Below, piece after piece: positions 6,965-52,096 of a stretch of 52,096 nt of DNA (position 1 is its first letter; each line of letters begins with the position of its first letter). A program made the translations under genes and the position numbers. Origin of the DNA: a virus. Lineage: Duplodnaviria > Heunggongvirae > Uroviricota > Caudoviricetes. The DNA lies in the IMG/VR virus record IMGVR_UViG_3300033463_000001, positions 275,298 to 327,393 of that record. One strand, 5' to 3'. The notes beneath the pieces are model-generated. The model saw nothing but the letters and a program-made list of their open reading frames with translations, was not told where the DNA came from and made no database searches.

Positions 6965-7666
6965 GTGGAACAAACAAAAAAACTGGTAGACAATAGCGCA
7001 AATGCGTATATGCGAGACATCTCAAAAATTGAGGTGATATCATCTGAGGAACAACTTGAACTTGTTAAACTGGCTCAAAAAGGAGACCTAGATGCACGTA
7101 ACAAGCTGATTGAGTGTAATTTAAAGTTCGTTGCCGCCACAGCGAGAGAATATATCAATGACCGTGTTGAGTTGTTTGACCTTATACAGAGTGGTGTTGA
7201 TGGGTTAATGTATGCAATCAAGAAATTTGATTTCAGTCACTCAACCTGTTTTCTTACCTATGCTGTGTACTGGATTGAGCAATACATACAAAAGTCTGTC
7301 CGTTCATTCGGTCGAGAAATTAGTGTTACGCTTCTCAATGCCCATAAAAACGACTACGAAGACGATGTCCAGGATGTTATTAGCACATACACAAGCGATG
7401 AACCTGGCATGATTCAACAAGAGCAGAGCTATCGCACTCACGAACACAAAGAGATGGTGAAAAAGATGATGGCAATACTCAATCCGAGGGAAAAAGAGAT
7501 ATTAACAATGTACTATGGCCTTGATAATACAAAGAAACTTTCAATGAATGAGATATCCGAGTATATGGGGCTTAGTAGCGAGCGCACACGTAAAATTAAA
7601 GAAGGCGCAATCCACAAGATAAGAGGTGCATCTGTTGGAAAATACACTCTTGATGATATTTATTGA
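6965..7666 (+). CDS. sigma-70 family RNA polymerase sigma factor (sigma #1)
   Basis: Region 1.2 AYMRDI, region 2 ARNKLIECNLKFV...DLIQSG..GLMYAIKKFD...FLTYAVYWI, region 4 LNPREKEIL...SERTRKIKEGAIHKIR. Confidence 0.9.
   Translation: MEQTKKLVDNSANAYMRDISKIEVISSEEQLELVKLAQKGDLDARNKLIECNLKFVAATAREYINDRVELFDLIQSGVDGLMYAIKKFDFSHSTCFLTYAVYWIEQYIQKSVRSFGREISVTLLNAHKNDYEDDVQDVISTYTSDEPGMIQQEQSYRTHEHKEMVKKMMAILNPREKEILTMYYGLDNTKKLSMNEISEYMGLSSERTRKIKEGAIHKIRGASVGKYTLDDIY
7656..7665 (+). promoter_or_regulatory. putative late promoter motif ATATTTATTG
   Basis: Variant of GTATTTATW motif overlapping sigma stop, upstream of ATG 7706. Confidence 0.45.
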
Positions 7667-15116: not shown

Positions 15117-16022
15117 ATGGCAGCATTTTATTTCGACTTTAAAGACAACAACCCCGTAGAAAGAACTGAAGCATTCAATGCTTATAGTAAGGAAATTAAG
15201 AAGTACCCCCGCCTGAGCGATGAAGAGATTGACGCTCTCATTACTCGTATGAACGAGACAGACGATGAAAACCTGAAGCGCGACATCCGGGATAGCATCA
15301 TTATGGCACACCAGCAACTGCTTATCTCCCTTTCTAAGCGCTATGCTAACACTGAAAACGTAGACCAGCTTGATTTAATCAATGAGGGTGTATTTGGTCT
15401 TATCAAGGCTATTGAGAAGTACAAACCAGGCGCTGGTTCGAAGTTTTATTCGTACGCAGCTGACTGGGTTCGTGATGAAATGTCTAAAGCTACATATGCC
15501 GCTCCCATTGTGAAGACTGGCGGTAAGAAGTATTTCACTGTATTCACTAAGTGCTACGACCGACTTGCTGAACAGTATGAGGGATATGTTCCTGACGATT
15601 TACTTCTTGAGGAAATCAACAAAGAGGTGCATGAGAGTGACCGTATTGCGTCTCTTAGTACTGCTACTCTGGCTATGTCTGTCGGATATAGTGAGTTCTG
15701 CGACAAATCGGATAAGTTTTCTGATATGTCATGTACCGGCGTTGACTCGCTGATTACTGGCCGTCCGTATTGGGAAGGTCTCAGCGATACAGAATCAAGT
15801 GTTGATGCAGATGACCAGAAACGTCTGGTTAAACTCGCATTGGGTTCTATCAAGAATAAAAAAGACAAAGAGTTGATTTGCGACCTGTATGGTATCGACC
15901 GCCCGCAGATGGGTTACGAAATGGCCGCATGGAAGTATGGCACATCAGAAGTGACTGTGAAAAAGCGCGAGAAGAAGGCGCTGGAAGCTATGAAGACAAA
16001 GCTTTCGAAAATGGCGTTATAA
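15117..16022 (+). CDS. sigma-70 family RNA polymerase sigma factor (sigma #2)
   Basis: AYSKEIKKYPRLS, RDSIIMAHQQLLISLSKRY, DLINEGVFGLIKAIEKY, FYSYAADWV, region 4 VKKREKKALEAMK. Confidence 0.88.
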   Translation: MAAFYFDFKDNNPVERTEAFNAYSKEIKKYPRLSDEEIDALITRMNETDDENLKRDIRDSIIMAHQQLLISLSKRYANTENVDQLDLINEGVFGLIKAIEKYKPGAGSKFYSYAADWVRDEMSKATYAAPIVKTGGKKYFTVFTKCYDRLAEQYEGYVPDDLLLEEINKEVHESDRIASLSTATLAMSVGYSEFCDKSDKFSDMSCTGVDSLITGRPYWEGLSDTESSVDADDQKRLVKLALGSIKNKKDKELICDLYGIDRPQMGYEMAAWKYGTSEVTVKKREKKALEAMKTKLSKMAL

Positions 16023-36546: not shown

Positions 36547-37131
36547 ATGGATAAAATGAAAACGACATGCCCGTTGTGTGGCAAGGAAGTTGAGTTTGAT
36601 GATGATGATATTATCACCCAAACGCCTGACGGACGAAAACTGACAGATACTGAGATTGAAGAACTCACGGTTGACGATGAAGTTGACGAAGTGATTGTAT
36701 GTCCTCATTGCAACGAGAAGTTTAGCGTTGTGGAATATCTCAACAATATTACGTATCGTGTAACAGAGTTCGGCATCTTCGTTATGTCACTTTACAACGC
36801 AGGACTTATAACAGATGATGTATTTGAACCTGATAACAACCGACTTGAAAGGGGAGCATTCGAGCTCTTCCAAACATACCTGCAAACCCATGGTTTCTAC
36901 CGCGAGAACGAGTACGACCCTGTAGTAACTCCGCCGGATGATAAGAAGCCCGAAGAATTGTTCAACTTAGCCCTGGAGAAAATGGGGTTTGTGAACATGA
37001 AAGACCTTAGTTCTTCCAGCAAAGCACATGTGGCATGGTTGTGTTTCGTTGACGGAATGAAACGTAGCGGCTATTTGGCAGGTGAGGATGAAAATACTGA
37101 CAAAAAGGCAGTCGTTGTCGAGGATAAGTGA
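36547..37131 (+). CDS. Zn-ribbon-containing hypothetical protein
   Basis: CPLC...CPHC. Confidence 0.7.
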   Translation: MDKMKTTCPLCGKEVEFDDDDIITQTPDGRKLTDTEIEELTVDDEVDEVIVCPHCNEKFSVVEYLNNITYRVTEFGIFVMSLYNAGLITDDVFEPDNNRLERGAFELFQTYLQTHGFYRENEYDPVVTPPDDKKPEELFNLALEKMGFVNMKDLSSSSKAHVAWLCFVDGMKRSGYLAGEDENTDKKAVVVEDK

Positions 37132-37215
37132 CAAAATAACTGCCAAAATGGCAGTGATTAAAAATGGCACACAATTTGTGATAAATGGTATTGTAACAAA
37201 ACTGATTTAAATAAT

Positions 37216-37920
37216 ATGGCAAATCGTATTTCTGAAATGGAGACGAAAGAGCTCCAAGAACAACTTGAAGCGCTCCGCGCTATTAAGAACCCGTCTTCTG
37301 AGGTTGTAACCTTGGTTGAGACTATCGTAGCTGAGCTGAATAACCGCAAAAAGGCTGTAGTTGATGATGTACTGAAAGAGACTGCAAAACCGAATAAAGC
37401 ATCTAAGCTGTTCGGTTCACGTCTGCTGGAGAAAAAGCCTATTGACTTTAACAAAACTGGTGATGGTACTATTACCGAGAAGGCAGACAATGCTATTACT
37501 GGTGGTTTGAACTTGAAGAAAGAGATTGACGCTAAGAAGGTAGACTTATGTGGTAAAGGTGTCTGCGCAAAACAGAATGAAGTCCTGATAGGTAAATACT
37601 TCAAGCAGGTATTCGACACATTCAGTGTATACTACTATGTTTGGGGCGAGCTGAATGGCCGCGTATATGTTGAGAAGGTATTGAACTCTGATAATGAGAA
37701 CTCTATCACCAGGACAAACAGTCCGCGCGCTAGGTTCGTACGTCTCGCTTCTCCGGCAACAAAGGATGAGTATGAAGTTGCTCGTCAGGCAGTTACCAAT
37801 AAGATTGACGAGGAACAAAAGCAAGTTCGCAAGCTGGTAAATGCTCTTACTGAGTACACTCCGTTCCCGTTCCTTCGTTTGCCTTACGGATTGGTATTCT
37901 CTCCGGGTTTCTTCTTCTAA
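37216..37920 (+). CDS. hypothetical protein
   Basis: 234-aa ORF followed by terminator. Confidence 0.7.
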   Translation: MANRISEMETKELQEQLEALRAIKNPSSEVVTLVETIVAELNNRKKAVVDDVLKETAKPNKASKLFGSRLLEKKPIDFNKTGDGTITEKADNAITGGLNLKKEIDAKKVDLCGKGVCAKQNEVLIGKYFKQVFDTFSVYYYVWGELNGRVYVEKVLNSDNENSITRTNSPRARFVRLASPATKDEYEVARQAVTNKIDEEQKQVRKLVNALTEYTPFPFLRLPYGLVFSPGFFF

Positions 37921-37929
37921 CATTCATCG

Positions 37930-37968
37930 GCGCCCATCAGTGGTTTCATTGATGAGCACTTTTTTTCT
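37930..37968 (+). terminator. Rho-independent terminator
   Basis: Imperfect stem ..CATCAGTG-gttt-CATTGATG.. followed by T8. Confidence 0.65.
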
Positions 37969-37973
37969 TCATT

Positions 37974-38414
37974 ATGGAAGCATTCTATTATTACGTAGTC
38001 AACATCAATCTAGTCATTGAGAAAAAGACGCACGAGAAAAAAACAAATCGTTTTCTTGAAGCTAGAACGTATACTGAACCGATTGGCTCAATGGATTCAA
38101 TCTTCAACCTCGACACTGAGAAACAGGTGATTCAATTGGCGCATGCACAATACGTTAGCCAGCGTGAAGCTAGCGAGCATATCAATAGTTTCATGGAAAC
38201 GATGAAGAACACGTGCCAGATACATTTTGAAAAAGAAGCTCCGTATGGCTCCAACACAGAGAACTACACCGGTTGTATTCCTACCTACAATACTGAAATA
38301 ACATCGCTCAAGTACGAAGTAACGTTAACCCACAACGGCGTCGAAACGTACGAGAACTTCGACGAGTTTAAAACAGAAAAGAAAAAATGCGAAAAGAACT
38401 TTCTTGCGGGATAA
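37974..38414 (+). CDS. hypothetical protein
   Basis: 146-aa ORF. Confidence 0.6.
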   Translation: MEAFYYYVVNINLVIEKKTHEKKTNRFLEARTYTEPIGSMDSIFNLDTEKQVIQLAHAQYVSQREASEHINSFMETMKNTCQIHFEKEAPYGSNTENYTGCIPTYNTEITSLKYEVTLTHNGVETYENFDEFKTEKKKCEKNFLAG

Positions 38415-38836
38415 TAATCGATACAGAAAACGGCCTTTTGGCGATGCTGCCTTATGGACGCCTCAAGGATGCCTTTCATAACTATGACCTTGCAAAAGGG
38501 CATATAGAGGAAGGCGAAACGCCAATGGAATGTGCTCTGCGTGAGTTGCAGGAGGAATCCGGCATTGTTTTAAGCGATGAGCAAAAGCAATCACTTGTTG
38601 ACCTTGGTGTACACAAATATATTACCAAAAAAGACCTACATCTGTTCTACCTTTCAACGGAAATTGCAAAAGACTTCCAATTCAAGTGCAGTACGAATTT
38701 CGCATTGAGCGATGGTCGTGAACGTCCGGAGATGATAGGATACAGGTGGGTGCACGATTTAAGATACTATTTCCGTAGTATGTGCGCGACATTATCGAAT
38801 ATACCGCAGTTGGCGAAGTATAAAGTCGGTGACTAA
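38387..38836 (+). CDS. Nudix hydrolase
   Basis: Complete Nudix box GHIEEGETPMECALRELQEESG. Confidence 0.9.
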   Translation: MRKELSCGIIIDTENGLLAMLPYGRLKDAFHNYDLAKGHIEEGETPMECALRELQEESGIVLSDEQKQSLVDLGVHKYITKKDLHLFYLSTEIAKDFQFKCSTNFALSDGRERPEMIGYRWVHDLRYYFRSMCATLSNIPQLAKYKVGD

Positions 38837-38839
38837 AAG

Positions 38840-38870
38840 AAAAGAGCTAAGGTATTCCCTAGCTCTTTTT
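38840..38870. terminator. bidirectional terminator
   Basis: AAAAGAGCTA...TAGCTCTTTT between convergent genes. Confidence 0.75.
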
Positions 38871-38871
38871 G

Positions 38872-39012
38872 TTACCGACCCTGTCCACGGTAGGGTTTCT
38901 TGTAGAGTTTAGAAGTCTTCAGCTTTGAAGTTTTCTTCTTTGCATGCACACCAGGCCTTGAAATGTGGATGTTCAATGGTGCGCTGACTGTTTTTGTTTG
39001 TGCTTTTGCCAT
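38872..39012 (-). CDS. small basic protein (46 aa, ...RPGVHAKKKTSK...YRGQGR)
   Basis: Hand translation; Lys-rich; bounded by late-type motif and terminator. Confidence 0.75.
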   Translation of the reverse strand: MAKAQTKTVSAPLNIHISRPGVHAKKKTSKLKTSKLYKKPYRGQGR

Positions 39013-39132
39013 ATTGTTAGTGTTTTATGTTTTTTTGTTGTGCTAGTGCGTTATAATGCGAGGAATAAACCCACAAAGTACACGGGCAATGGATTCTTCG
39101 ACTATGTTGTGCAAATAATCACTATACACTAA

Positions 39133-39142
39133 CAATAAATAC
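39133..39142 (-). promoter_or_regulatory. putative late promoter motif GTATTTATTG
   Basis: Minus strand, upstream of small basic gene, divergent from clpP promoter. Confidence 0.55.
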
Positions 39143-39169
39143 AAAAATGGTTTGTTTATCGCGAAAATG

Positions 39170-39181
39170 GGACTATATTAG
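39170..39181 (+). promoter_or_regulatory. phage promoter motif GGACTATATTAG
   Basis: Exact motif upstream of ATG 39217. Confidence 0.75.
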
Positions 39182-39216
39182 TAACGAATAACAAGTAGAA
39201 ACACTTTTTAAGATAT

Positions 39217-39894
39217 ATGAAAACAACACAAAATGATTTTCTGAGGTTTGCAGCAGACATTCCAGGAGTAAGCAGAGCGGCTCTCGATAAGCAAATCAAG
39301 AACTATCAATCACCGATGGTTATCGAGGAGAGGCCGATGAACATGACTCAGTTAGATGTATTCAGCCGCCTCATGAATGACCGAATCATTTTCCTCGGAA
39401 CCGAAATTGATGCAGACACTGCCAATATCGTAATGGCACAACTTCTGTTCTTGAACAACATTGACAAAGAGAGACCGATTAACCTCTACCTGAATACCCC
39501 CGGAGGTTCTGTATATGATGGCCTTGGCATCTACGACACGATGAACAACATCGACTGCCCGGTATACACTACTTGTACGGCAAAAGCAATGAGCATGGGT
39601 GCCGTTCTATTGATTGGTGGCGAAAAAGGCCACAGAAGTGCTCTGCCACATAGCCGGATTATGATACACCAGCCAAGTTGCAATATGGGATACAATACCT
39701 ATGCCAACCACGAGATTGAGCTGAAAGAGATGAACGCGCTGCGTAATGAGCTCTATCAAATCATGGCAGACCATAGTGGAAATTCTTTCAAAGACCTTGA
39801 GAAGTGGTGTGCAATCAATAATTACATGTCTCCGGAAGAGGCACTTGCGAAGGGATTCATTGATAAGGTGACTAACATTAACCGAAATGAGTGA
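39217..39894 (+). CDS. clpP: ClpP protease subunit (catalytic Asp apparently replaced by Asn)
   Basis: DVFSRLMNDRIIFLG, LYLNTPGGSV, AMSMG (Ser), IMIHQP (His), ..AINNYMSPEEA. Confidence 0.92.
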   Translation: MKTTQNDFLRFAADIPGVSRAALDKQIKNYQSPMVIEERPMNMTQLDVFSRLMNDRIIFLGTEIDADTANIVMAQLLFLNNIDKERPINLYLNTPGGSVYDGLGIYDTMNNIDCPVYTTCTAKAMSMGAVLLIGGEKGHRSALPHSRIMIHQPSCNMGYNTYANHEIELKEMNALRNELYQIMADHSGNSFKDLEKWCAINNYMSPEEALAKGFIDKVTNINRNE

Positions 39895-40804
39895 AATAGC
39901 TCTCATTGAAAAAATCAAGCAGTACAATAAGCCGCACTGTTACCAATACCAGAAACGTCTTGATACATACGAAGAGGACAAAGAACGTCTTGGATGGGAT
40001 GACGAGTTCATTGCGAACATCAACCTTGATGATTTCCAATTTGCCTACATCGAAAGCAAGCAAGACAAGGAATTGGCTACTGCGTTTATTAAACGATATG
40101 AGTGGCTTGGTACCGTCGCACCATACGTAACACACTGGTTCACAGCTACTTATAAAGGCGAACTTGGCGGTGTGATTATGATGGCAATGCCAACTGCGTT
40201 CAGCAAACTGCTTGGTGAGAACACGAAATCGGTTGAACGCCTAATAGGTAGAGGAGCCTCAGCATCATGGGCGCCAAAGAATCTTGGCAGTAAATTCCTG
40301 AAATGGTGTATCGACTGGATGGTTAAGAACACACAGTACAGGTTATTCACATGCTACAGTGATGTCCAGGCCGGTGAGATTGGACAAATCTATCAGAGTT
40401 TGAACTTCTACTGTCTTGGTCAAGGTGCCGGAACTAATATCAGATGCATCAATCCGTATAATCCAGATAAACTCATCACCGATAGAACGTTCAGGTCGAG
40501 AAGTTTCTACAAGCGATATGCTAAAGACCTCGGCATTGAGTGGCATAAGGAGTGGAATAGTGACCAGATTGTACATTGGGAGTTAATCCCGGATGATGTG
40601 GAAGAGAGGCTGCGTGCCTATTCTAAGGAAATGTACAAAAAGGCAGTTAAAATAGAGTTTCCATCAAAGTGGAAATACGCCTACGTACAAGGCCGAACCA
40701 AGACCGAAACACGTGAATTAAGGAAACTGTTCGAGTCGTTGAACAAGACGGTTCCATACCCAAAACGAAATAAAGAAACAAACAATAATGAAAGTAAGGA
40801 TTAA
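39887..40804 (+). CDS. Mom-like (GNAT-fold) putative DNA-modification protein
   Basis: FIKRYEWLG, GVIMM, RGASASWAPKNLGSKF, TCYSDVQAGEIGQIYQSLNFYCLG resembles Mom-family SYAD...H.G.IYQA.N..Y.G. Confidence 0.65.
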   Translation: MSEIALIEKIKQYNKPHCYQYQKRLDTYEEDKERLGWDDEFIANINLDDFQFAYIESKQDKELATAFIKRYEWLGTVAPYVTHWFTATYKGELGGVIMMAMPTAFSKLLGENTKSVERLIGRGASASWAPKNLGSKFLKWCIDWMVKNTQYRLFTCYSDVQAGEIGQIYQSLNFYCLGQGAGTNIRCINPYNPDKLITDRTFRSRSFYKRYAKDLGIEWHKEWNSDQIVHWELIPDDVEERLRAYSKEMYKKAVKIEFPSKWKYAYVQGRTKTETRELRKLFESLNKTVPYPKRNKETNNNESKD

Positions 40805-41258
40805 GAAGTTGCACCCGGATGCAAAGATGCCGGTGAAGAAACACGATAATGACTTCTGCTACGATGTATATGCAGTAAGTAAAGAAGAGTTGGTACCAGG
40901 AGTTACGCGCTACCACACTGGTATCGCCATGGAACTCGTTCCTGAGACGGAACAAGAGCGCGAACTTGCTGAGAAGTATATCATCGACATTGATGCCCGC
41001 CCAAGAAGTTCTGTATGGGAGACCGGTCAGATACTAAGCAATTGTGAAGGTACAATCGACAATGGTTATCGAGGTGAGATTATGGCTGTGTTCTACACGG
41101 TTATTCCTGGTATGAAACAGTACGAACCAGGAGAACGCATCTTTCAAATCAAACTTGGTTTCACATTACCGTTTAACTTCGAGTTCGTAGAGGAGTTAGG
41201 AGACACCTCTCGTGGTGGCGACGGATTTGGAAAAAGTGGACGTAAAGAGATACAATAA
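40788..41258 (+). CDS. dut: trimeric dUTPase
   Basis: RPRSS, GTIDNGYRGEI, RIFQ, RGGDGFGKSG motifs. Confidence 0.9.
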   Translation: MKVRIKKLHPDAKMPVKKHDNDFCYDVYAVSKEELVPGVTRYHTGIAMELVPETEQERELAEKYIIDIDARPRSSVWETGQILSNCEGTIDNGYRGEIMAVFYTVIPGMKQYEPGERIFQIKLGFTLPFNFEFVEELGDTSRGGDGFGKSGRKEIQ

Positions 41259-41268
41259 TTTATCAGTT

Positions 41269-41874
41269 ATGACAAATAGTGAAAAAATTTCGTATGCGCT
41301 TGGTATCAGCATGGCGCAACAGATGATTCGTAGTGGAATCTACGAGGCTGATTACAAAATTCTCGCAGAAGCAATTGAGGATATGCTAAAAAACAAAGAG
41401 CCTAAGCTGCCAATGCAAGAGGCTGCTGTTATCCTGAATGACTTCATCAACCAGAAAGAGGTAGAGATGGCCAAGATGAACAAAGACGTTGCTGACAGGT
41501 TCCTTGAAGGTAATAAATCAATGCCTGGCATCCAGACGACAGCATCCGGTCTGCAGTACAAGGTTGATTTCGAGTCTGAGAACGAAAACGCAAAGCGCCC
41601 GAAAGCAACTGATGAAGTTGAGGTTAAGTATCGCGGCAAGTTCTTGAGCGGTGAAATTTTTAACGACACAGAGGCTAAAGGCCACACCGTTACGTTCCCG
41701 CTTGCGCAGGTAATCCAAGGATGGACTGAAGGTCTGCAGTTGATGAAAGAAGGTGATAAGTTCACGTTCTATGTACCGTACAATTTGGCATATGGTGCTG
41801 CAGGAAATGACGTCATTCCTCCATTCTCAGCGTTGATTTTCGAGATTGAACTTGTTAAGGTTCTTGAGAAATAA
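41269..41874 (+). CDS. FKBP-type peptidyl-prolyl isomerase (FklB/Mip-like)
   Basis: SYALGI N-domain, TTASGLQYKV, VIQGWTEGLQLM, LAYG, IPPFSALIFEIEL. Confidence 0.92.
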   Translation: MTNSEKISYALGISMAQQMIRSGIYEADYKILAEAIEDMLKNKEPKLPMQEAAVILNDFINQKEVEMAKMNKDVADRFLEGNKSMPGIQTTASGLQYKVDFESENENAKRPKATDEVEVKYRGKFLSGEIFNDTEAKGHTVTFPLAQVIQGWTEGLQLMKEGDKFTFYVPYNLAYGAAGNDVIPPFSALIFEIELVKVLEK

Positions 41875-41885
41875 GATTGTGTGTT

Positions 41886-42353
41886 ATGGATATCGAACTG
41901 AAAACACAATGGCGCAGGCTTTGTAATCAATACCTGCAAGAGTTCGTTGAAAAACACGAAATAACACTTGAGCCATATCCGTGGGTTGCTGACAATCCTG
42001 GTACGGTTGCTATGCTTGGCGATTACTTCGTTAGCATGGAAAATATCCGGTACGATATTGACAATAACATTCCTGTAGGATGGTTCGAGGAGTGGTACGA
42101 CAAACATACAGAGTACACGTCTCTCGAATTGAAATACATGAATTTCGAAACATACTGCAAGAAGTGTCCAGACCCGTACACTCCGGAGCAAATCGAGAAA
42201 ATCAGAGAAGGCAAGCGTAAAATTGACGAACTCAATGCTGAGATGATTCAGTCTATAAAAGACGCCAACGACGATTACGATAAAAAGATGTCTGAATATG
42301 GAGAAAAAGAAGTCAAAACTACTGCTGTGGCTCCAAATCCATGTCATTTCTAG
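41886..42353 (+). CDS. hypothetical protein
   Basis: ORF; start set at ATG 41886. Confidence 0.7.
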   Translation: MDIELKTQWRRLCNQYLQEFVEKHEITLEPYPWVADNPGTVAMLGDYFVSMENIRYDIDNNIPVGWFEEWYDKHTEYTSLELKYMNFETYCKKCPDPYTPEQIEKIREGKRKIDELNAEMIQSIKDANDDYDKKMSEYGEKEVKTTAVAPNPCHF

Positions 42354-46761: not shown

Positions 46762-47239
46762 TATGCACCATATCAACAATGCGTTTGATTCGATTAAGCA
46801 CAGCGCCCTCGAAATATACAATATCGGTTTCAGAGCCGGTCTAGCCGAGGGTGGTGTGAACATCTCTTTCTCAGAAGCTGATATTTTCTCATCAGATGAG
46901 GAATTAAAGCGTTATCAAGAACAGCGTAGAACGCGTGGGTTTGATGATACTGAGTTTTGGGATTTTGAGCGAACAATTGCAAAGTTCATGGTTCCTCGCC
47001 TGAAAGTCATCATTGAAACATTGAAGGCAGAGAAGGATACCAGGCATCGTGACTACATGCTTATTCCGGACTGCGAAAAGATGTTGGAAGGATTCACATA
47101 TGCACTAACACCTATTGAGGATTTGTGTAGTGAGTACGAGGTAATCAAACGACGTAATATCATTGAGTCAATACAAACAGCATTCGACCTTCTTGCAAAG
47201 CGACATGGAGACTTACACGTATTCCCAGGTGAAGAGTGA
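46742..47239 (+). CDS. hypothetical protein
   Basis: RGFDDTEFWD...TIAKFMVPRLK pattern. Confidence 0.7.
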   Translation: MAAIMHDMHHINNAFDSIKHSALEIYNIGFRAGLAEGGVNISFSEADIFSSDEELKRYQEQRRTRGFDDTEFWDFERTIAKFMVPRLKVIIETLKAEKDTRHRDYMLIPDCEKMLEGFTYALTPIEDLCSEYEVIKRRNIIESIQTAFDLLAKRHGDLHVFPGEE

Positions 47240-47522
47240 CGCACCGGCACCGCAGATGATTAAACTAAGGTCTGCATATGGCGCGATTAACTACTTGGAG
47301 TTGATATTGGATAGCGAAACAGTTGTCCAATATCAAGTCTTTAGTAACATGCCGATTAGCTTCTCTTACAACACACCGGAAGATATCGTTTCGTTCGATG
47401 TTGATGGAGGTGGCTCTCCGTATTTCGTTGGAGAAGAATACTTCGGTATGATTCTATGGAAGATTGTTTACCATCGCGAGTATGATGCGATATACGTATT
47501 TTTTCAAAAGAAAAAAAAATGA
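47163..47522 (+). CDS. hypothetical protein
   Basis: ORF; true start probably downstream (e.g. ATG 47256). Confidence 0.55.
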   Translation: MSQYKQHSTFLQSDMETYTYSQVKSDAPAPQMIKLRSAYGAINYLELILDSETVVQYQVFSNMPISFSYNTPEDIVSFDVDGGGSPYFVGEEYFGMILWKIVYHREYDAIYVFFQKKKK

Positions 47523-47912: not shown

Positions 47913-48884
47913 ATGGAGACATTACTAATCTTTATTCTAGCAGAGTTCTGCTTCTTTACTGTTGTACGGTATGGGTTGATTTTCGCGTTAAACATGTGGA
48001 TTAAACGCAATACCGGCCGTGAGTATCTGTATGATTATGACACTGAGACGCATGCGTTGATAGCCGACGACGAGTATGCTGATTCAGTTCGTTACCGTCT
48101 TACAATCCCTATCGAAAATATCGCCACCTTTATAAAAACAGTGAAGGCACGCAAAGAAGATAAGGTGAAGATATATCCGGATTGGGTTTATGAGAATAAA
48201 CACATTCGTGGCGTAGAGAATGTAATTGCTGAGGCTCTGAATCGTAAAGACCCTGTCACTGCAATGATACTTTCCTTCTTTGAGTGGAAATACAACGATA
48301 TTATGGACACTAATACAGCTAACGTCCTTTATACGATTATCATGGAATACCCTGATGAGTTCGACACGTTCTCTGAGGCGATGTATACCGCAAGTGATAG
48401 TGGAGAAGAGTATGTTGAGTTTATCCAGACCGTTGTAAACACGATTTCCAGTGAGGGCGACTACGAGAAGACGGAAAAATTGATTTCTGCATTCAATGGA
48501 ACTGTATTGAACCACAACACATCAAACGACTGGGCTTCTGAGGAAGAGCTTGCAGAGATGGATGGTAATATGGATGTTGTCCGCGAGAAGTTCATCCAGG
48601 CCGGTTGCCAAAACTCAATACAAGCACTGCGTCAGTCCATCAAAACAAATTCCGCAATCCTTGGCCTCATTGTAGTCTACGGAGATTGGATTGACGAGAA
48701 TAAGGTCATGCTGAACAACGAGCTAACAGACACTGTTGTTGAAGCTCTTAAAGCAACAGAAGGCGCATATAAGGCTGTGTTCAGTCAGGAACGCTTCCAA
48801 GAGTTCGCTAATGTATTGATAGCAAATCTTGAGATGCGTAATAAACTAGATGTCGTTGCCGAAATTGCGGAAATGTGCAAATAA
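47913..48884 (+). CDS. membrane-anchored hypothetical protein
   Basis: N-terminal TM, acidic helical body. Confidence 0.7.
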   Translation: METLLIFILAEFCFFTVVRYGLIFALNMWIKRNTGREYLYDYDTETHALIADDEYADSVRYRLTIPIENIATFIKTVKARKEDKVKIYPDWVYENKHIRGVENVIAEALNRKDPVTAMILSFFEWKYNDIMDTNTANVLYTIIMEYPDEFDTFSEAMYTASDSGEEYVEFIQTVVNTISSEGDYEKTEKLISAFNGTVLNHNTSNDWASEEELAEMDGNMDVVREKFIQAGCQNSIQALRQSIKTNSAILGLIVVYGDWIDENKVMLNNELTDTVVEALKATEGAYKAVFSQERFQEFANVLIANLEMRNKLDVVAEIAEMCK

Positions 48885-49990: not shown

Positions 49991-51229
49991 ATGGAAAACG
50001 AGCAGGGGAATAGAAATTCTTTATTTGACTACAAAGGTGTTTACAGTGGATGGGATTTGAATTTTCTCGAAAAACCAACTGTCTCCACGGTAACACTGTA
50101 CGAACTTATAAACGAAAGTATTCCGAATTGTCTCTGTAAAGACATCTACATTAGCCAGGAGAATGCGCGTATCATGCGCAAGAAGGTGAAAAACGTTTTG
50201 GAAGATAAGTTAGATTCGTTACTCGGTAAGTTATACCAGAAACGCACTTTCATCCAGCGCCCACAACACCACCTGGTGAGTGTTATGTCCGGTGACAACA
50301 TCAACTCATTAGAAGACAGTGGTTTCACGGCTGATATTCCTTCTTACAACGAGAAATTGATAGATAATGAGTATACTACCGTCTTTATTTATGCTTTCAA
50401 AGCCGAAGACGGATTTGTGAATCTCATTTGTCTATCTAACACATGTACACTGTGCTGTTGTTCGTCTCCTGCTGGAGATGAGATTGTCTCTGAAATTTAT
50501 CAGACCTTCCTTGATTTGGAAGAGGAGCCTGAGATGAAGAAGAAAATCATGCTCGTTACTAAGTCCGAATACGGGTATAGCCTCGTTCCGATGGACGTCC
50601 TTCTTCCGGAGGAGTTTAACATCGACGAGCTGTATCCCGATGACTTCAAGAAGGTCGACGCTGGAGTCCGTGAGTTCATTGAGTCACAAAAGAGTGGATT
50701 GGTTATATTACACGGAATGCAGGGAACTGGTAAAACGACATATATCAGGTATATTATACACAACTACAACAAACAGTTTGTATTCTTGCCGGCCGATATG
50801 GTCAGTGAACTTACTACCCCGTCATTTGTCAATTTCCTGAAAGACAAAATGAAGGATTCTGTGTTGATAATCGAAGATTGCGAGGGCTTGCTGCGCGATA
50901 GGTCTAAACAGACATCTACCGGTACCGGAATCAGCAACATCCTCAATATGTCTGACGGATTGCTTGGTGATAGCATTAAACTCAAGTTTATCTGCACCTT
51001 CAATAGCAAGTACCAGGATATTGATAAAGCATTGCTGAGGAAGGGTAGGTTGAAACAGCAATATCGATTTGGAGAGCTCCCGGTTGAAAAAGCCAATCGC
51101 TTACTGCACAAAATGCATGGGGAAGACGCGAATACGGATAAACCAATGACACTTGCTGACATCTTCAACTTCAAGAGTGACAACAACGTTGAACAAGCAA
51201 CGAATCGGAATTTAATTGGGTATCAATAA
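49991..51229 (+). CDS. AAA+ ATPase (BCS1-like C-terminal domain)
   Basis: GMQGTGKT, LIIEDCE, ILNMSDGLLGD, IDKALLRKGRL. Confidence 0.88.
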   Translation: MENEQGNRNSLFDYKGVYSGWDLNFLEKPTVSTVTLYELINESIPNCLCKDIYISQENARIMRKKVKNVLEDKLDSLLGKLYQKRTFIQRPQHHLVSVMSGDNINSLEDSGFTADIPSYNEKLIDNEYTTVFIYAFKAEDGFVNLICLSNTCTLCCCSSPAGDEIVSEIYQTFLDLEEEPEMKKKIMLVTKSEYGYSLVPMDVLLPEEFNIDELYPDDFKKVDAGVREFIESQKSGLVILHGMQGTGKTTYIRYIIHNYNKQFVFLPADMVSELTTPSFVNFLKDKMKDSVLIIEDCEGLLRDRSKQTSTGTGISNILNMSDGLLGDSIKLKFICTFNSKYQDIDKALLRKGRLKQQYRFGELPVEKANRLLHKMHGEDANTDKPMTLADIFNFKSDNNVEQATNRNLIGYQ

Positions 51230-51239
51230 ATACAAAAAT

Positions 51240-51770
51240 ATGTCAATAGAAGATTCTAAGAAAATCATTGGGGCAGTCAGGGACTTGCTCAATTACAAAA
51301 ACGAAAAGTACGGGAATGCCGCATTGAAACCTTTGAATATATTCTACAAAGGCGATGCGCAAACAAGCATTACAATTCGTCTCGACGACAAGCTGTCACG
51401 CATCATGAATTGTCAGGACAAAATCCGTAAAAACGATATTGCAGATGTAGTTGGCTATTTGTTCTTACTCCTGATTTCACTGGGTGCATTTGAAGACGAA
51501 AAGAAACAAAGTGCTGATGCGTTCTCGAAGCGCCTTAATGAGGTATGTAACGGCCTTTATACCAAGATGACGCAAGTCGTTGCTGAGGATGATACTACTC
51601 CTGGTGTGTTTGTAAAGGAACCGGCGAGCCTGATTAATGCACAGACCATCCTTAGTGTTATTCACAAGTCTGATACATTGAGCATTGACAATGTAGTTCA
51701 GTTAACCGTTCTGCTTTTGCAAGTTATGGTTGAACACAACTACGTAGACTTGAGTGAGTTTAAGGATTGA
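51240..51770 (+). CDS. DUF1599/nucleotide-modification-associated domain protein
   Basis: KNEKYGNA...IRLDDKLSRI...D.VGYLFL pattern. Confidence 0.65.
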   Translation: MSIEDSKKIIGAVRDLLNYKNEKYGNAALKPLNIFYKGDAQTSITIRLDDKLSRIMNCQDKIRKNDIADVVGYLFLLLISLGAFEDEKKQSADAFSKRLNEVCNGLYTKMTQVVAEDDTTPGVFVKEPASLINAQTILSVIHKSDTLSIDNVVQLTVLLLQVMVEHNYVDLSEFKD

Positions 51771-51772
51771 GA

Positions 51773-51782
51773 GTATTTATAA
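51773..51782 (+). promoter_or_regulatory. putative late promoter motif GTATTTATAA
   Basis: Directly after stop 51770 and immediately upstream of candidate ncRNA. Confidence 0.6.
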
Positions 51783-51785
51783 ACG

Positions 51786-51934
51786 AGTGCAGGGGATACC
51801 ATAGCCAGTGCATGATAATGTTGTTCGTATTAACCTGTTGGGGTGAAACGGCTGGCGACTACTAATTCCGAGTGCCCTAATTACGGGACGTCTACTTCTT
51901 TCGAGGAGAGACAATCGCGAAAAGCGTCTGCACT
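51786..51934 (+). ncRNA. candidate structured ncRNA of unknown family
   Basis: Closing stem AGTGCAG/CTGCACT; internal stems GCCAG/CTGGC, CCC-taattac-GGG, GTCT-a-CTTCT-ttcg-AGGAG-AGAC, CGC-gaaaa-GCG; flanked by promoter motif and terminator. Confidence 0.6.
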
Positions 51935-51978
51935 ATACTCCCTTCCTAGTCTCGAATTAGGTGGGAGTATTTTTTTTT
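51935..51978 (+). terminator. Rho-independent terminator
   Basis: ATACTCCC..CCTA...TAGG.GGGAGTAT followed by T-tract. Confidence 0.8.
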
Positions 51979-51991
51979 AACACATTACATT

Positions 51992-52096
51992 ATGACAAAC
52001 ATAGAGAAACGAAATTTCTTTACAAAAGAGCTTAACAGTATTACCGAACCGAACGTACGTGAGTTCGTTGGTATTGTTCTTGACGGAACCGGCGAG
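51992..52096 (+). CDS. hypothetical protein, runs off window end
   Basis: MTNIEKRNFFTKELNSITEPNVREFVGIVLDGTGE, open to end of window. Confidence 0.6.
   Translation, partial: MTNIEKRNFFTKELNSITEPNVREFVGIVLDGTGE

Follow-up and report, generated by a model that had tools for sequence, protein, structure and literature searches.

The window analysed here, a stretch of 52,096 nucleotides, makes up the final 52 kb of a virus contig of 327,393 bp, and the sequencing runs that contain the region are nearly all cattle-gut metagenomes, from 22 studies. Towards its end the order of genes is SSB, AAA ATPase, a 184-aa protein, the element described below, an HD/ExoX-like_C protein (280 aa), a 74-aa protein and HSP70. 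The element lies in a spacer of 221 nt (51771-51991) that follows the TGA stop codon of the upstream gene (51768-51770), and the motif GTATTTATAA begins 2 nt after that codon. The features of the locus, in window coordinates, are the following.

51216..51770, plus strand: upstream gene of 184 aa without a Pfam family, the last in the row SSB, AAA ATPase, 184-aa gene
51773..51782, plus strand: promoter-like motif GTATTTATAA, with the core of the phage motif GTATTTAT[TA]G.TA[GA] and without G+9 and T+11
51786..51792, plus strand: 5' strand of P1, AGUGCAG, one half of the junction-closing stem (ViennaRNA pair probability ~0.99)
51804..51856, plus strand: P2 domain, GCCAGU/GCUGGC around two or three small hairpins (ViennaRNA)
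51857..51889, plus strand: linker and weak P3, CCC-UAAUUAC-GGG (pair probability ~0.2; 5' part of the linker predicted unpaired)
51890..51912, plus strand: P4, UUCG-capped hairpin GUCU.CUUCU/AGGAG.AGAC (ViennaRNA)
51916..51926, plus strand: P5, hairpin CGC-GAAAA-GCG (ViennaRNA)
51928..51934, plus strand: 3' strand of P1, CUGCACU, directly abutting the terminator with no linker (sequence, ViennaRNA)
51935..51978, plus strand: intrinsic terminator, hairpin of 8 bp + 6 bp at ~-17 kcal/mol, then U9 (ViennaRNA)
51992..52096, plus strand: start of the downstream HD-domain/ExoX-like_C gene (280 aa), which continues at the contig start; its ATG lies 13 nt past the T-run

The contig's first ~243 bases repeat its last 242 (window 51855-52096 against G000:C1:1-243, L002), and the sole difference between the two copies is the T-run of the terminator, with 10 T at the contig start and 9 T at the contig end. 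An independent JGI contig, L014, spans the junction of the contig ends uninterrupted, so the genome has no break at this point and the element is complete. Given the end overlap and the bridging contig, the genome is circular or circularly permuted, though it is classed as 'linear'. The assembly break was probably caused by the length polymorphism of the T-run, which counts 7, 9 or 10 T across strains and contig ends. With regard to the neighbouring genes, a Pfam search to E 0.01 gave 0 matches for the 184-aa upstream protein. Only its N-terminal ~90 residues have relatives, in Cellulophaga, Elizabethkingia, Microbacterium and Synechococcus phages, and its C-terminal half is unique to the phage lineage. 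The phage HSP70 (G000:C1:1267-3180) shares 64% identity with many cellular DnaK proteins, and there are no phage relatives in between; this pattern suggests a fairly recent capture from a bacterium.

The earlier note had described a self-contained multibranch fold set between a late motif and a strong terminator. Every stem that it listed lies where it was drawn, on the plus strand, ViennaRNA returned the same architecture, and the terminator is a real intrinsic one. Both the MFE and the centroid fold form a five-helix junction closed by the 7-bp stem P1 (51786-92 with 51928-34). Pair probabilities reach 0.9-1.0 for P1, P2, the UUCG hairpin, the GAAAA hairpin and the terminator, and only ~0.2 for the CCC/GGG hairpin (CCC 51875-77 with GGG 51885-87). 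The P2 domain is held together by GCCAG (51804-08) and CTGGC (51852-56) in DNA letters; as an alternative within it, a T-loop-like hairpin GUUG-UUCGUAU-UAAC can be read from the sequence. The terminator hairpin occupies 51935-69 and is followed by T9 at 51970-78.

With the terminator included, the fold scores z = -2.97 and 0 of 200 shuffles are as good, while the core alone reaches z = -1.83 (10 of 200 shuffles as good). The element ranks 9th among the 102 strand-specific intergenic folds of the genome. It is structured, but not exceptional by folding energy alone. The plus strand is supported by its z-score of -2.97 against -1.48 for the fold of the minus strand, by the U-run, which follows the hairpin only on the plus strand, and by stems with G-U wobbles, such as the U-G wobble in P4 that becomes an A-C mismatch on the opposite strand. 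Another strongly folding spacer of the window, at 47240-47518, scores z = -3.9 to -5.2 and holds a perfect 15-bp hairpin; it is overlapped by a 119-aa ORF with a TTG start (47163-47522) and may therefore be coding.

The motif in front of the element is one of 50 GTATTTAT sites in the genome, 26 of which lie 0-80 nt 5' of same-strand gene starts, mostly at 15-27 nt, and have the extended consensus GTATTTAT[TA]G.TA[GA] in common. From base composition, we take the chance expectation for GTATTTAT in the genome to be ~24 sites; thus, the gene-proximal set may be regarded as real, and the remaining sites perhaps not. Examples of the motif are found at window 8611 (G000 283908) and at G000 74132, 93146, 100524 and 167250. 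The 26 sites have an A/T-rich patch at -16 to -13, and the leaders after the motif are very short, with no evident Shine-Dalgarno sequence. What the earlier note called a late motif is a genuine promoter motif genome-wide, but the copy at the element keeps only the 8-mer core, with A and C in place of the conserved G+9 (24 of the 26 sites) and T+11 (21 of the 26). Located 4 nt before P1, it is, by its sequence, a plausible promoter, and the two sigma-70-family proteins of the phage (genes at window 7106-7306 and 15300-15482) fit a phage-specific promoter. The boundaries of the element are supported by this promoter-type motif so close to P1 and by a terminator 200 nt past the upstream stop codon.

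The GC content is 0.49 in the core of the element and 0.42 in the genome. The size of the spacer is not rare, with 54 gaps of at least 120 nt in the genome by a crude ORF call; the unusual feature is the 200 nt from the upstream stop codon to the T-run. No terminator was found between the upstream 184-aa gene and the element, which, together with the imperfect promoter copy, speaks for a structured 3'UTR belonging to the upstream SSB-ATPase-184-aa operon. Such an end would have no promoter of its own and would protect the mRNA from 3' exonucleases or be cut out as a 3'UTR-derived RNA. Metatranscriptome contigs over the region, from three runs, cover the upstream genes at a depth of 2-8. Contigs from two RNA libraries cross the upstream stop codon into the element, one to 51795 and the other to 51857, at low depth and with DNA carry-over possible; they are compatible with readthrough from the upstream operon and so with a 3' untranslated end. 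Across 51858-52096 there is no RNA-library contig coverage at depth 2-8, which is too thin to indicate presence or absence of a discrete RNA. A mere 3' end is nevertheless unlikely, since the terminator hairpin alone would be enough for protection: among the 22 other same-strand terminators, 21 stand 12-70 nt past a stop codon and one at 120 nt. The extra 150 nt, which are invariant among strains (see below), would be hard to explain through stability alone.

Small RNAs of the DapZ/MicL type derive from 3'UTRs, where they have an internal promoter and share the terminator of the mRNA, and they act via a free single-stranded seed together with Hfq. The element is like them in its position right after a stop codon, in the promoter-like site at the gene end and in the use of the operon's terminator. 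Unlike them, it has its ends buried in P1 and shows no obvious seed, and complementary matches to it within the phage genome are of at most 12 nt, no more than chance would give. RNAs that work through their shape, on a protein or ligand, and not through base-pairing are built in this way, as a closed junction with no free seed; hence, protein binding in trans would be expected of an RNA made from the element.

A covariance search of the whole window against Rfam 15 at gathering thresholds, the check proposed in the earlier note, returned 0 matches, and a local Rfam 15 scan to E 10 gave three chance-level matches only (15-23 bits, against thresholds of 50-70). As that note had judged by eye, the element is neither a tRNA nor a tmRNA: ARAGORN made no call there, while finding 18 tRNAs elsewhere in the genome, and at relaxed thresholds returned implausible calls only. 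The 18 tRNA genes lie on the minus strand at G000:C1:36956-48415, 17 of them clustered at 36956-42003, and the tRNA-Arg stands apart at 48342-48415. Five tRNA-Leu in this set are only 75 nt long, without the long variable arm, which would be unusual compared with leucine tRNAs of the bacterial type. The suggestion of a 6S-like decoy did not stand up, as the fold is a five-helix junction and no match to 6S or Bacteroidales-1 RNA was obtained in Rfam 15. 6S RNA is a long, largely double-stranded rod with a central bubble resembling an open promoter, and this identity was rejected for the element.

Two further kinds of structured RNA deserve comparison. Y-RNA-like RNAs (YrlA) and other tRNA-like modules, bacterial and phage, consist of a terminal stem and a branched domain. 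The element is similar to YrlA in having both, as well as the possible T-loop-like hairpin in P2. It differs in having no Rfam match and no credible ARAGORN call even under relaxed settings. Neither Ro60/TROVE nor RtcB genes were found in the phage. A YrlA-like identity was rejected, given no TROVE linkage in the phage genome and no tRNA-like module. The packaging RNA (pRNA) of phi29 is likewise a phage-encoded structured RNA of the same size class; in contrast to it, the element matched nothing in Rfam at any threshold and is not flanked by packaging genes. pRNA is known only from small phi29-like phages whose replication is protein-primed.

Within DNA collections that may leave out records near-identical to the window's genome, blastn against 50,697 phage records found no homologue. 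Exact-pattern searches gave 0 matches for each of four patterns in viral contigs and for both patterns used on representative prokaryote genome contigs; on metagenome contigs, one of two patterns gave 0 matches and the other two chance 19-mers without flanking similarity. A covariance model (R1), built from identical copies, retrieved the element alone from its own genome and nothing from five IMG/VR records. Relatives of the HD protein at 59-65% identity (L003, L010-L013) stand in other gene orders and have no such spacer. For the 184-aa protein, the ATPase and HSP70, no phage relatives exist between ~99% and ~65% identity; by sequence, the lineage is isolated in current data. The element belongs to no known family and is an orphan structured RNA candidate.

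Strains of the phage were reached via near-identical flanking proteins, namely L014, L015 (extended as L021) and L016, plus the partial contig L022. In the flanking genes, third codon positions differ from the window by 6.5% in L014, 8.9% in L015/L021 and 9.2% in L016, and first and second codon positions by 0.6-1.4% in these three strains. Over the 162 bases 51773-51934 these strains show 0 changes each, although the third-position rate predicts 10-15 (P <= 2e-5 for each strain), and L022 is identical over the element's first 50 bases. The longest invariant run in the range common to the strains is of 205 nt, the next of 109 nt. In L015 and L016 it starts 27 nt ahead of the promoter-like motif and stops within the terminator, in the loop or the T-run, and changes resume right outside it. 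None of the six changes in the spacer falls in a stem: one is in the terminator loop (51951, a SNP of one strain), two bases are lost from the T-run and three lie in the 13 bases before the ATG. The neighbouring downstream spacer of 68 nt has 2-4 changes per strain. The element thus appears to be under strong purifying selection, with constraint at the level of nonsynonymous sites, and this is well supported by the strain comparison. The 329-aa 'HD protein' of L016 (L016:579-1568) is a gene-calling artefact, because the T-run, 2 nt shorter there, brings into frame a start codon that lies upstream, within the RNA element.

A small protein would be another product on which selection could act, and ORFs of 32-45 aa occur on either strand, at 51767-51865 (plus), 51843-51980 (plus) and 51777-51914 (minus). 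Coding is nonetheless most improbable. The ORFs have TTG/GTG starts and none spans the whole invariant block. There are 0 synonymous changes against ~5 expected, ~54 third positions would be expected to vary, and indels in the T-run are tolerated at the 3' end of the 45-aa ORF on the plus strand.

The same invariance could instead stem from a DNA-level site (protein binding, replication or packaging), from a recent shared recombination tract or from chance, with the fold incidental and no RNA function. The modest z-score of the core fits this, the sampled strains are few and mutually related, and identity does occur in mosaic form: L014 is identical to the window over 622 nt at the element, and a second invariant block of ~325 nt, seen in the same strains, lies ~1 kb downstream, so that a recombination tract or a locally low substitution rate is possible. 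This second block (G000:C1:1046-1371) runs from the end of the spacer behind the HD gene through the entire 74-aa gene into the start of HSP70. An element without RNA function is, however, improbable, given that the invariant run in L015 and L016 brackets the element so closely. Moreover, no paralogues, iterons or other repeats of the element were found in its own genome, where it is single-copy, and its GC content above the genome mean does not suit an AT-rich unwinding element. Against a replication origin, the extremes of cumulative GC skew lie at ~72 kb and ~5-10 kb, not at the element. Taken as a whole, the locus probably holds a functional RNA element on the plus strand.

Between the T-run and the ATG of the HD gene there is no promoter motif. 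As this gene begins only 13 nt past the T-run without a promoter of its own, a cis-acting leader, which the earlier note had not raised, is a serious rival: a riboswitch, attenuator or polymerase-modifying RNA whose fold senses a ligand or factor and sets readthrough into the HD-phosphohydrolase gene and maybe into those after it. The element occupies a 5'-leader position, and the order is that of a riboswitch, with a promoter-like motif (putative), a P1-closed multi-helix junction, a terminator abutting the 3' strand of P1 and then the ATG. The leader here would be ~210 nt, compared with 15-27 nt at other promoters of the motif, and aptamers are typically under strong constraint over their full length, as are the 150 nt here.

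The terminating riboswitches closed by a P1 stem, such as the five-way lysine riboswitch, share with the element the succession of promoter, P1 junction, terminator touching the 3' strand of P1 and gene, and those of the lysine type are also similar in size and helix number. In contrast, the element has no Rfam match, and with it no conserved aptamer of a known class in Rfam 15, no convincing antiterminator alternative, no family of homologues and no hint of a ligand from gene context. Thermodynamic prediction gave only weak alternatives to the terminator: pairings between core and terminator strands reach at best -8.3 and -11.2 kcal/mol (constrained folding and duplex prediction), compared with ~-17 for the terminator, and dropping the 3' strand of the terminator gains the alternative fold only 0.8 kcal/mol. 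Riboswitch or leader matches are absent from Rfam even to E 10, and no comparable leader precedes the HD homologues of other phages (59-65% identity). In addition, 3 of the 22 other terminators have a start codon within 10 nt downstream and no promoter motif, so that leaky in-operon terminators are ordinary in this phage. A cis-acting leader is possible, if somewhat doubtful.

Among known layouts, that of the lambda-type PR'-tR' leader (the lambda '6S' transcript) comes nearest, by analogy only, as the element is not a member of this type. In both, a phage promoter (putative here) is followed within ~200 nt by a strong intrinsic terminator, giving a short RNA ahead of promoter-less genes. Unlike PR'-tR', the element has no sequence or Rfam relation to it and is a closed five-helix junction constrained along its whole length, and the genes downstream are those for the HD phosphohydrolase, the 74-aa protein and HSP70 rather than a late or lysis block. 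No Q-family antiterminator was found in the phage (no match to Pfam Antiterm or Phage_antitermQ), nor a NusG-like gene, which counts against a leader as well. In Shiga-toxin phages, the terminated by-product of the PR'-tR' leader became a working small RNA, StxS (PMC7547250).

The explanation that we tentatively favour, with less than even confidence, is that the element encodes a small structured RNA peculiar to this phage lineage, a candidate terminated RNA of ~190 nt that acts through its fold. RNA polymerase, probably with a phage sigma factor, would start a few bases past GTATTTAT, near 51785, and some polymerases would also come from the upstream SSB-ATPase-184-aa operon. They would copy the five-helix junction closed by the 7-bp stem and mostly halt at the hairpin and U9. 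The product would be an RNA of ~190 nt with both ends locked, one in P1 and the other in the terminator hairpin, expected to act in trans through binding to a protein of the phage or of the host. Polymerases reading through the terminator would express the HD-phosphohydrolase gene.

Several observations weigh against this small RNA. Every available relative is identical over the core and not one compensatory change supports the fold, no diverged homologue having been found in the collections searched, and the core folds only modestly better than shuffles. The promoter copy is without G+9 and T+11, and ~24 GTATTTAT sites are expected in the genome by chance. Given the second invariant island, substitution may be locally slow here, or the strains may share a recombination tract. 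Within the strain comparison, L014 adds no local information, owing to its 622-nt identity, and L015 and L016, with many SNPs in common, are not independent lineages.

The element is a well-supported candidate for a well-bounded, strongly conserved orphan RNA in a rumen jumbo phage. As it occurs in a single phage lineage only, its function cannot be inferred by comparison, which limits its value. Nevertheless, structured RNAs of phages beyond tRNAs are rarely recognised, and from the huge phages of gut ecosystems almost none is known. This one is clearly bounded, easily cloned and invariant in nature, and is placed where the gating of a gene group with a nucleotide hydrolase and a chaperone is possible. 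It might, though this is a long shot, be a jumbo-phage regulatory RNA of a new class, and the first of that class, a riboswitch for a metabolite or signal or a polymerase-binding RNA, that decides whether polymerases get past the terminator to the HD-phosphohydrolase gene and perhaps on to HSP70, with the terminated product perhaps also acting in trans by binding a protein. If the element is truly a leader, it would represent a new regulatory RNA class; if it is truly a discrete RNA, it would offer a tractable way into the use of RNA by a rumen jumbo phage for control or for host manipulation.
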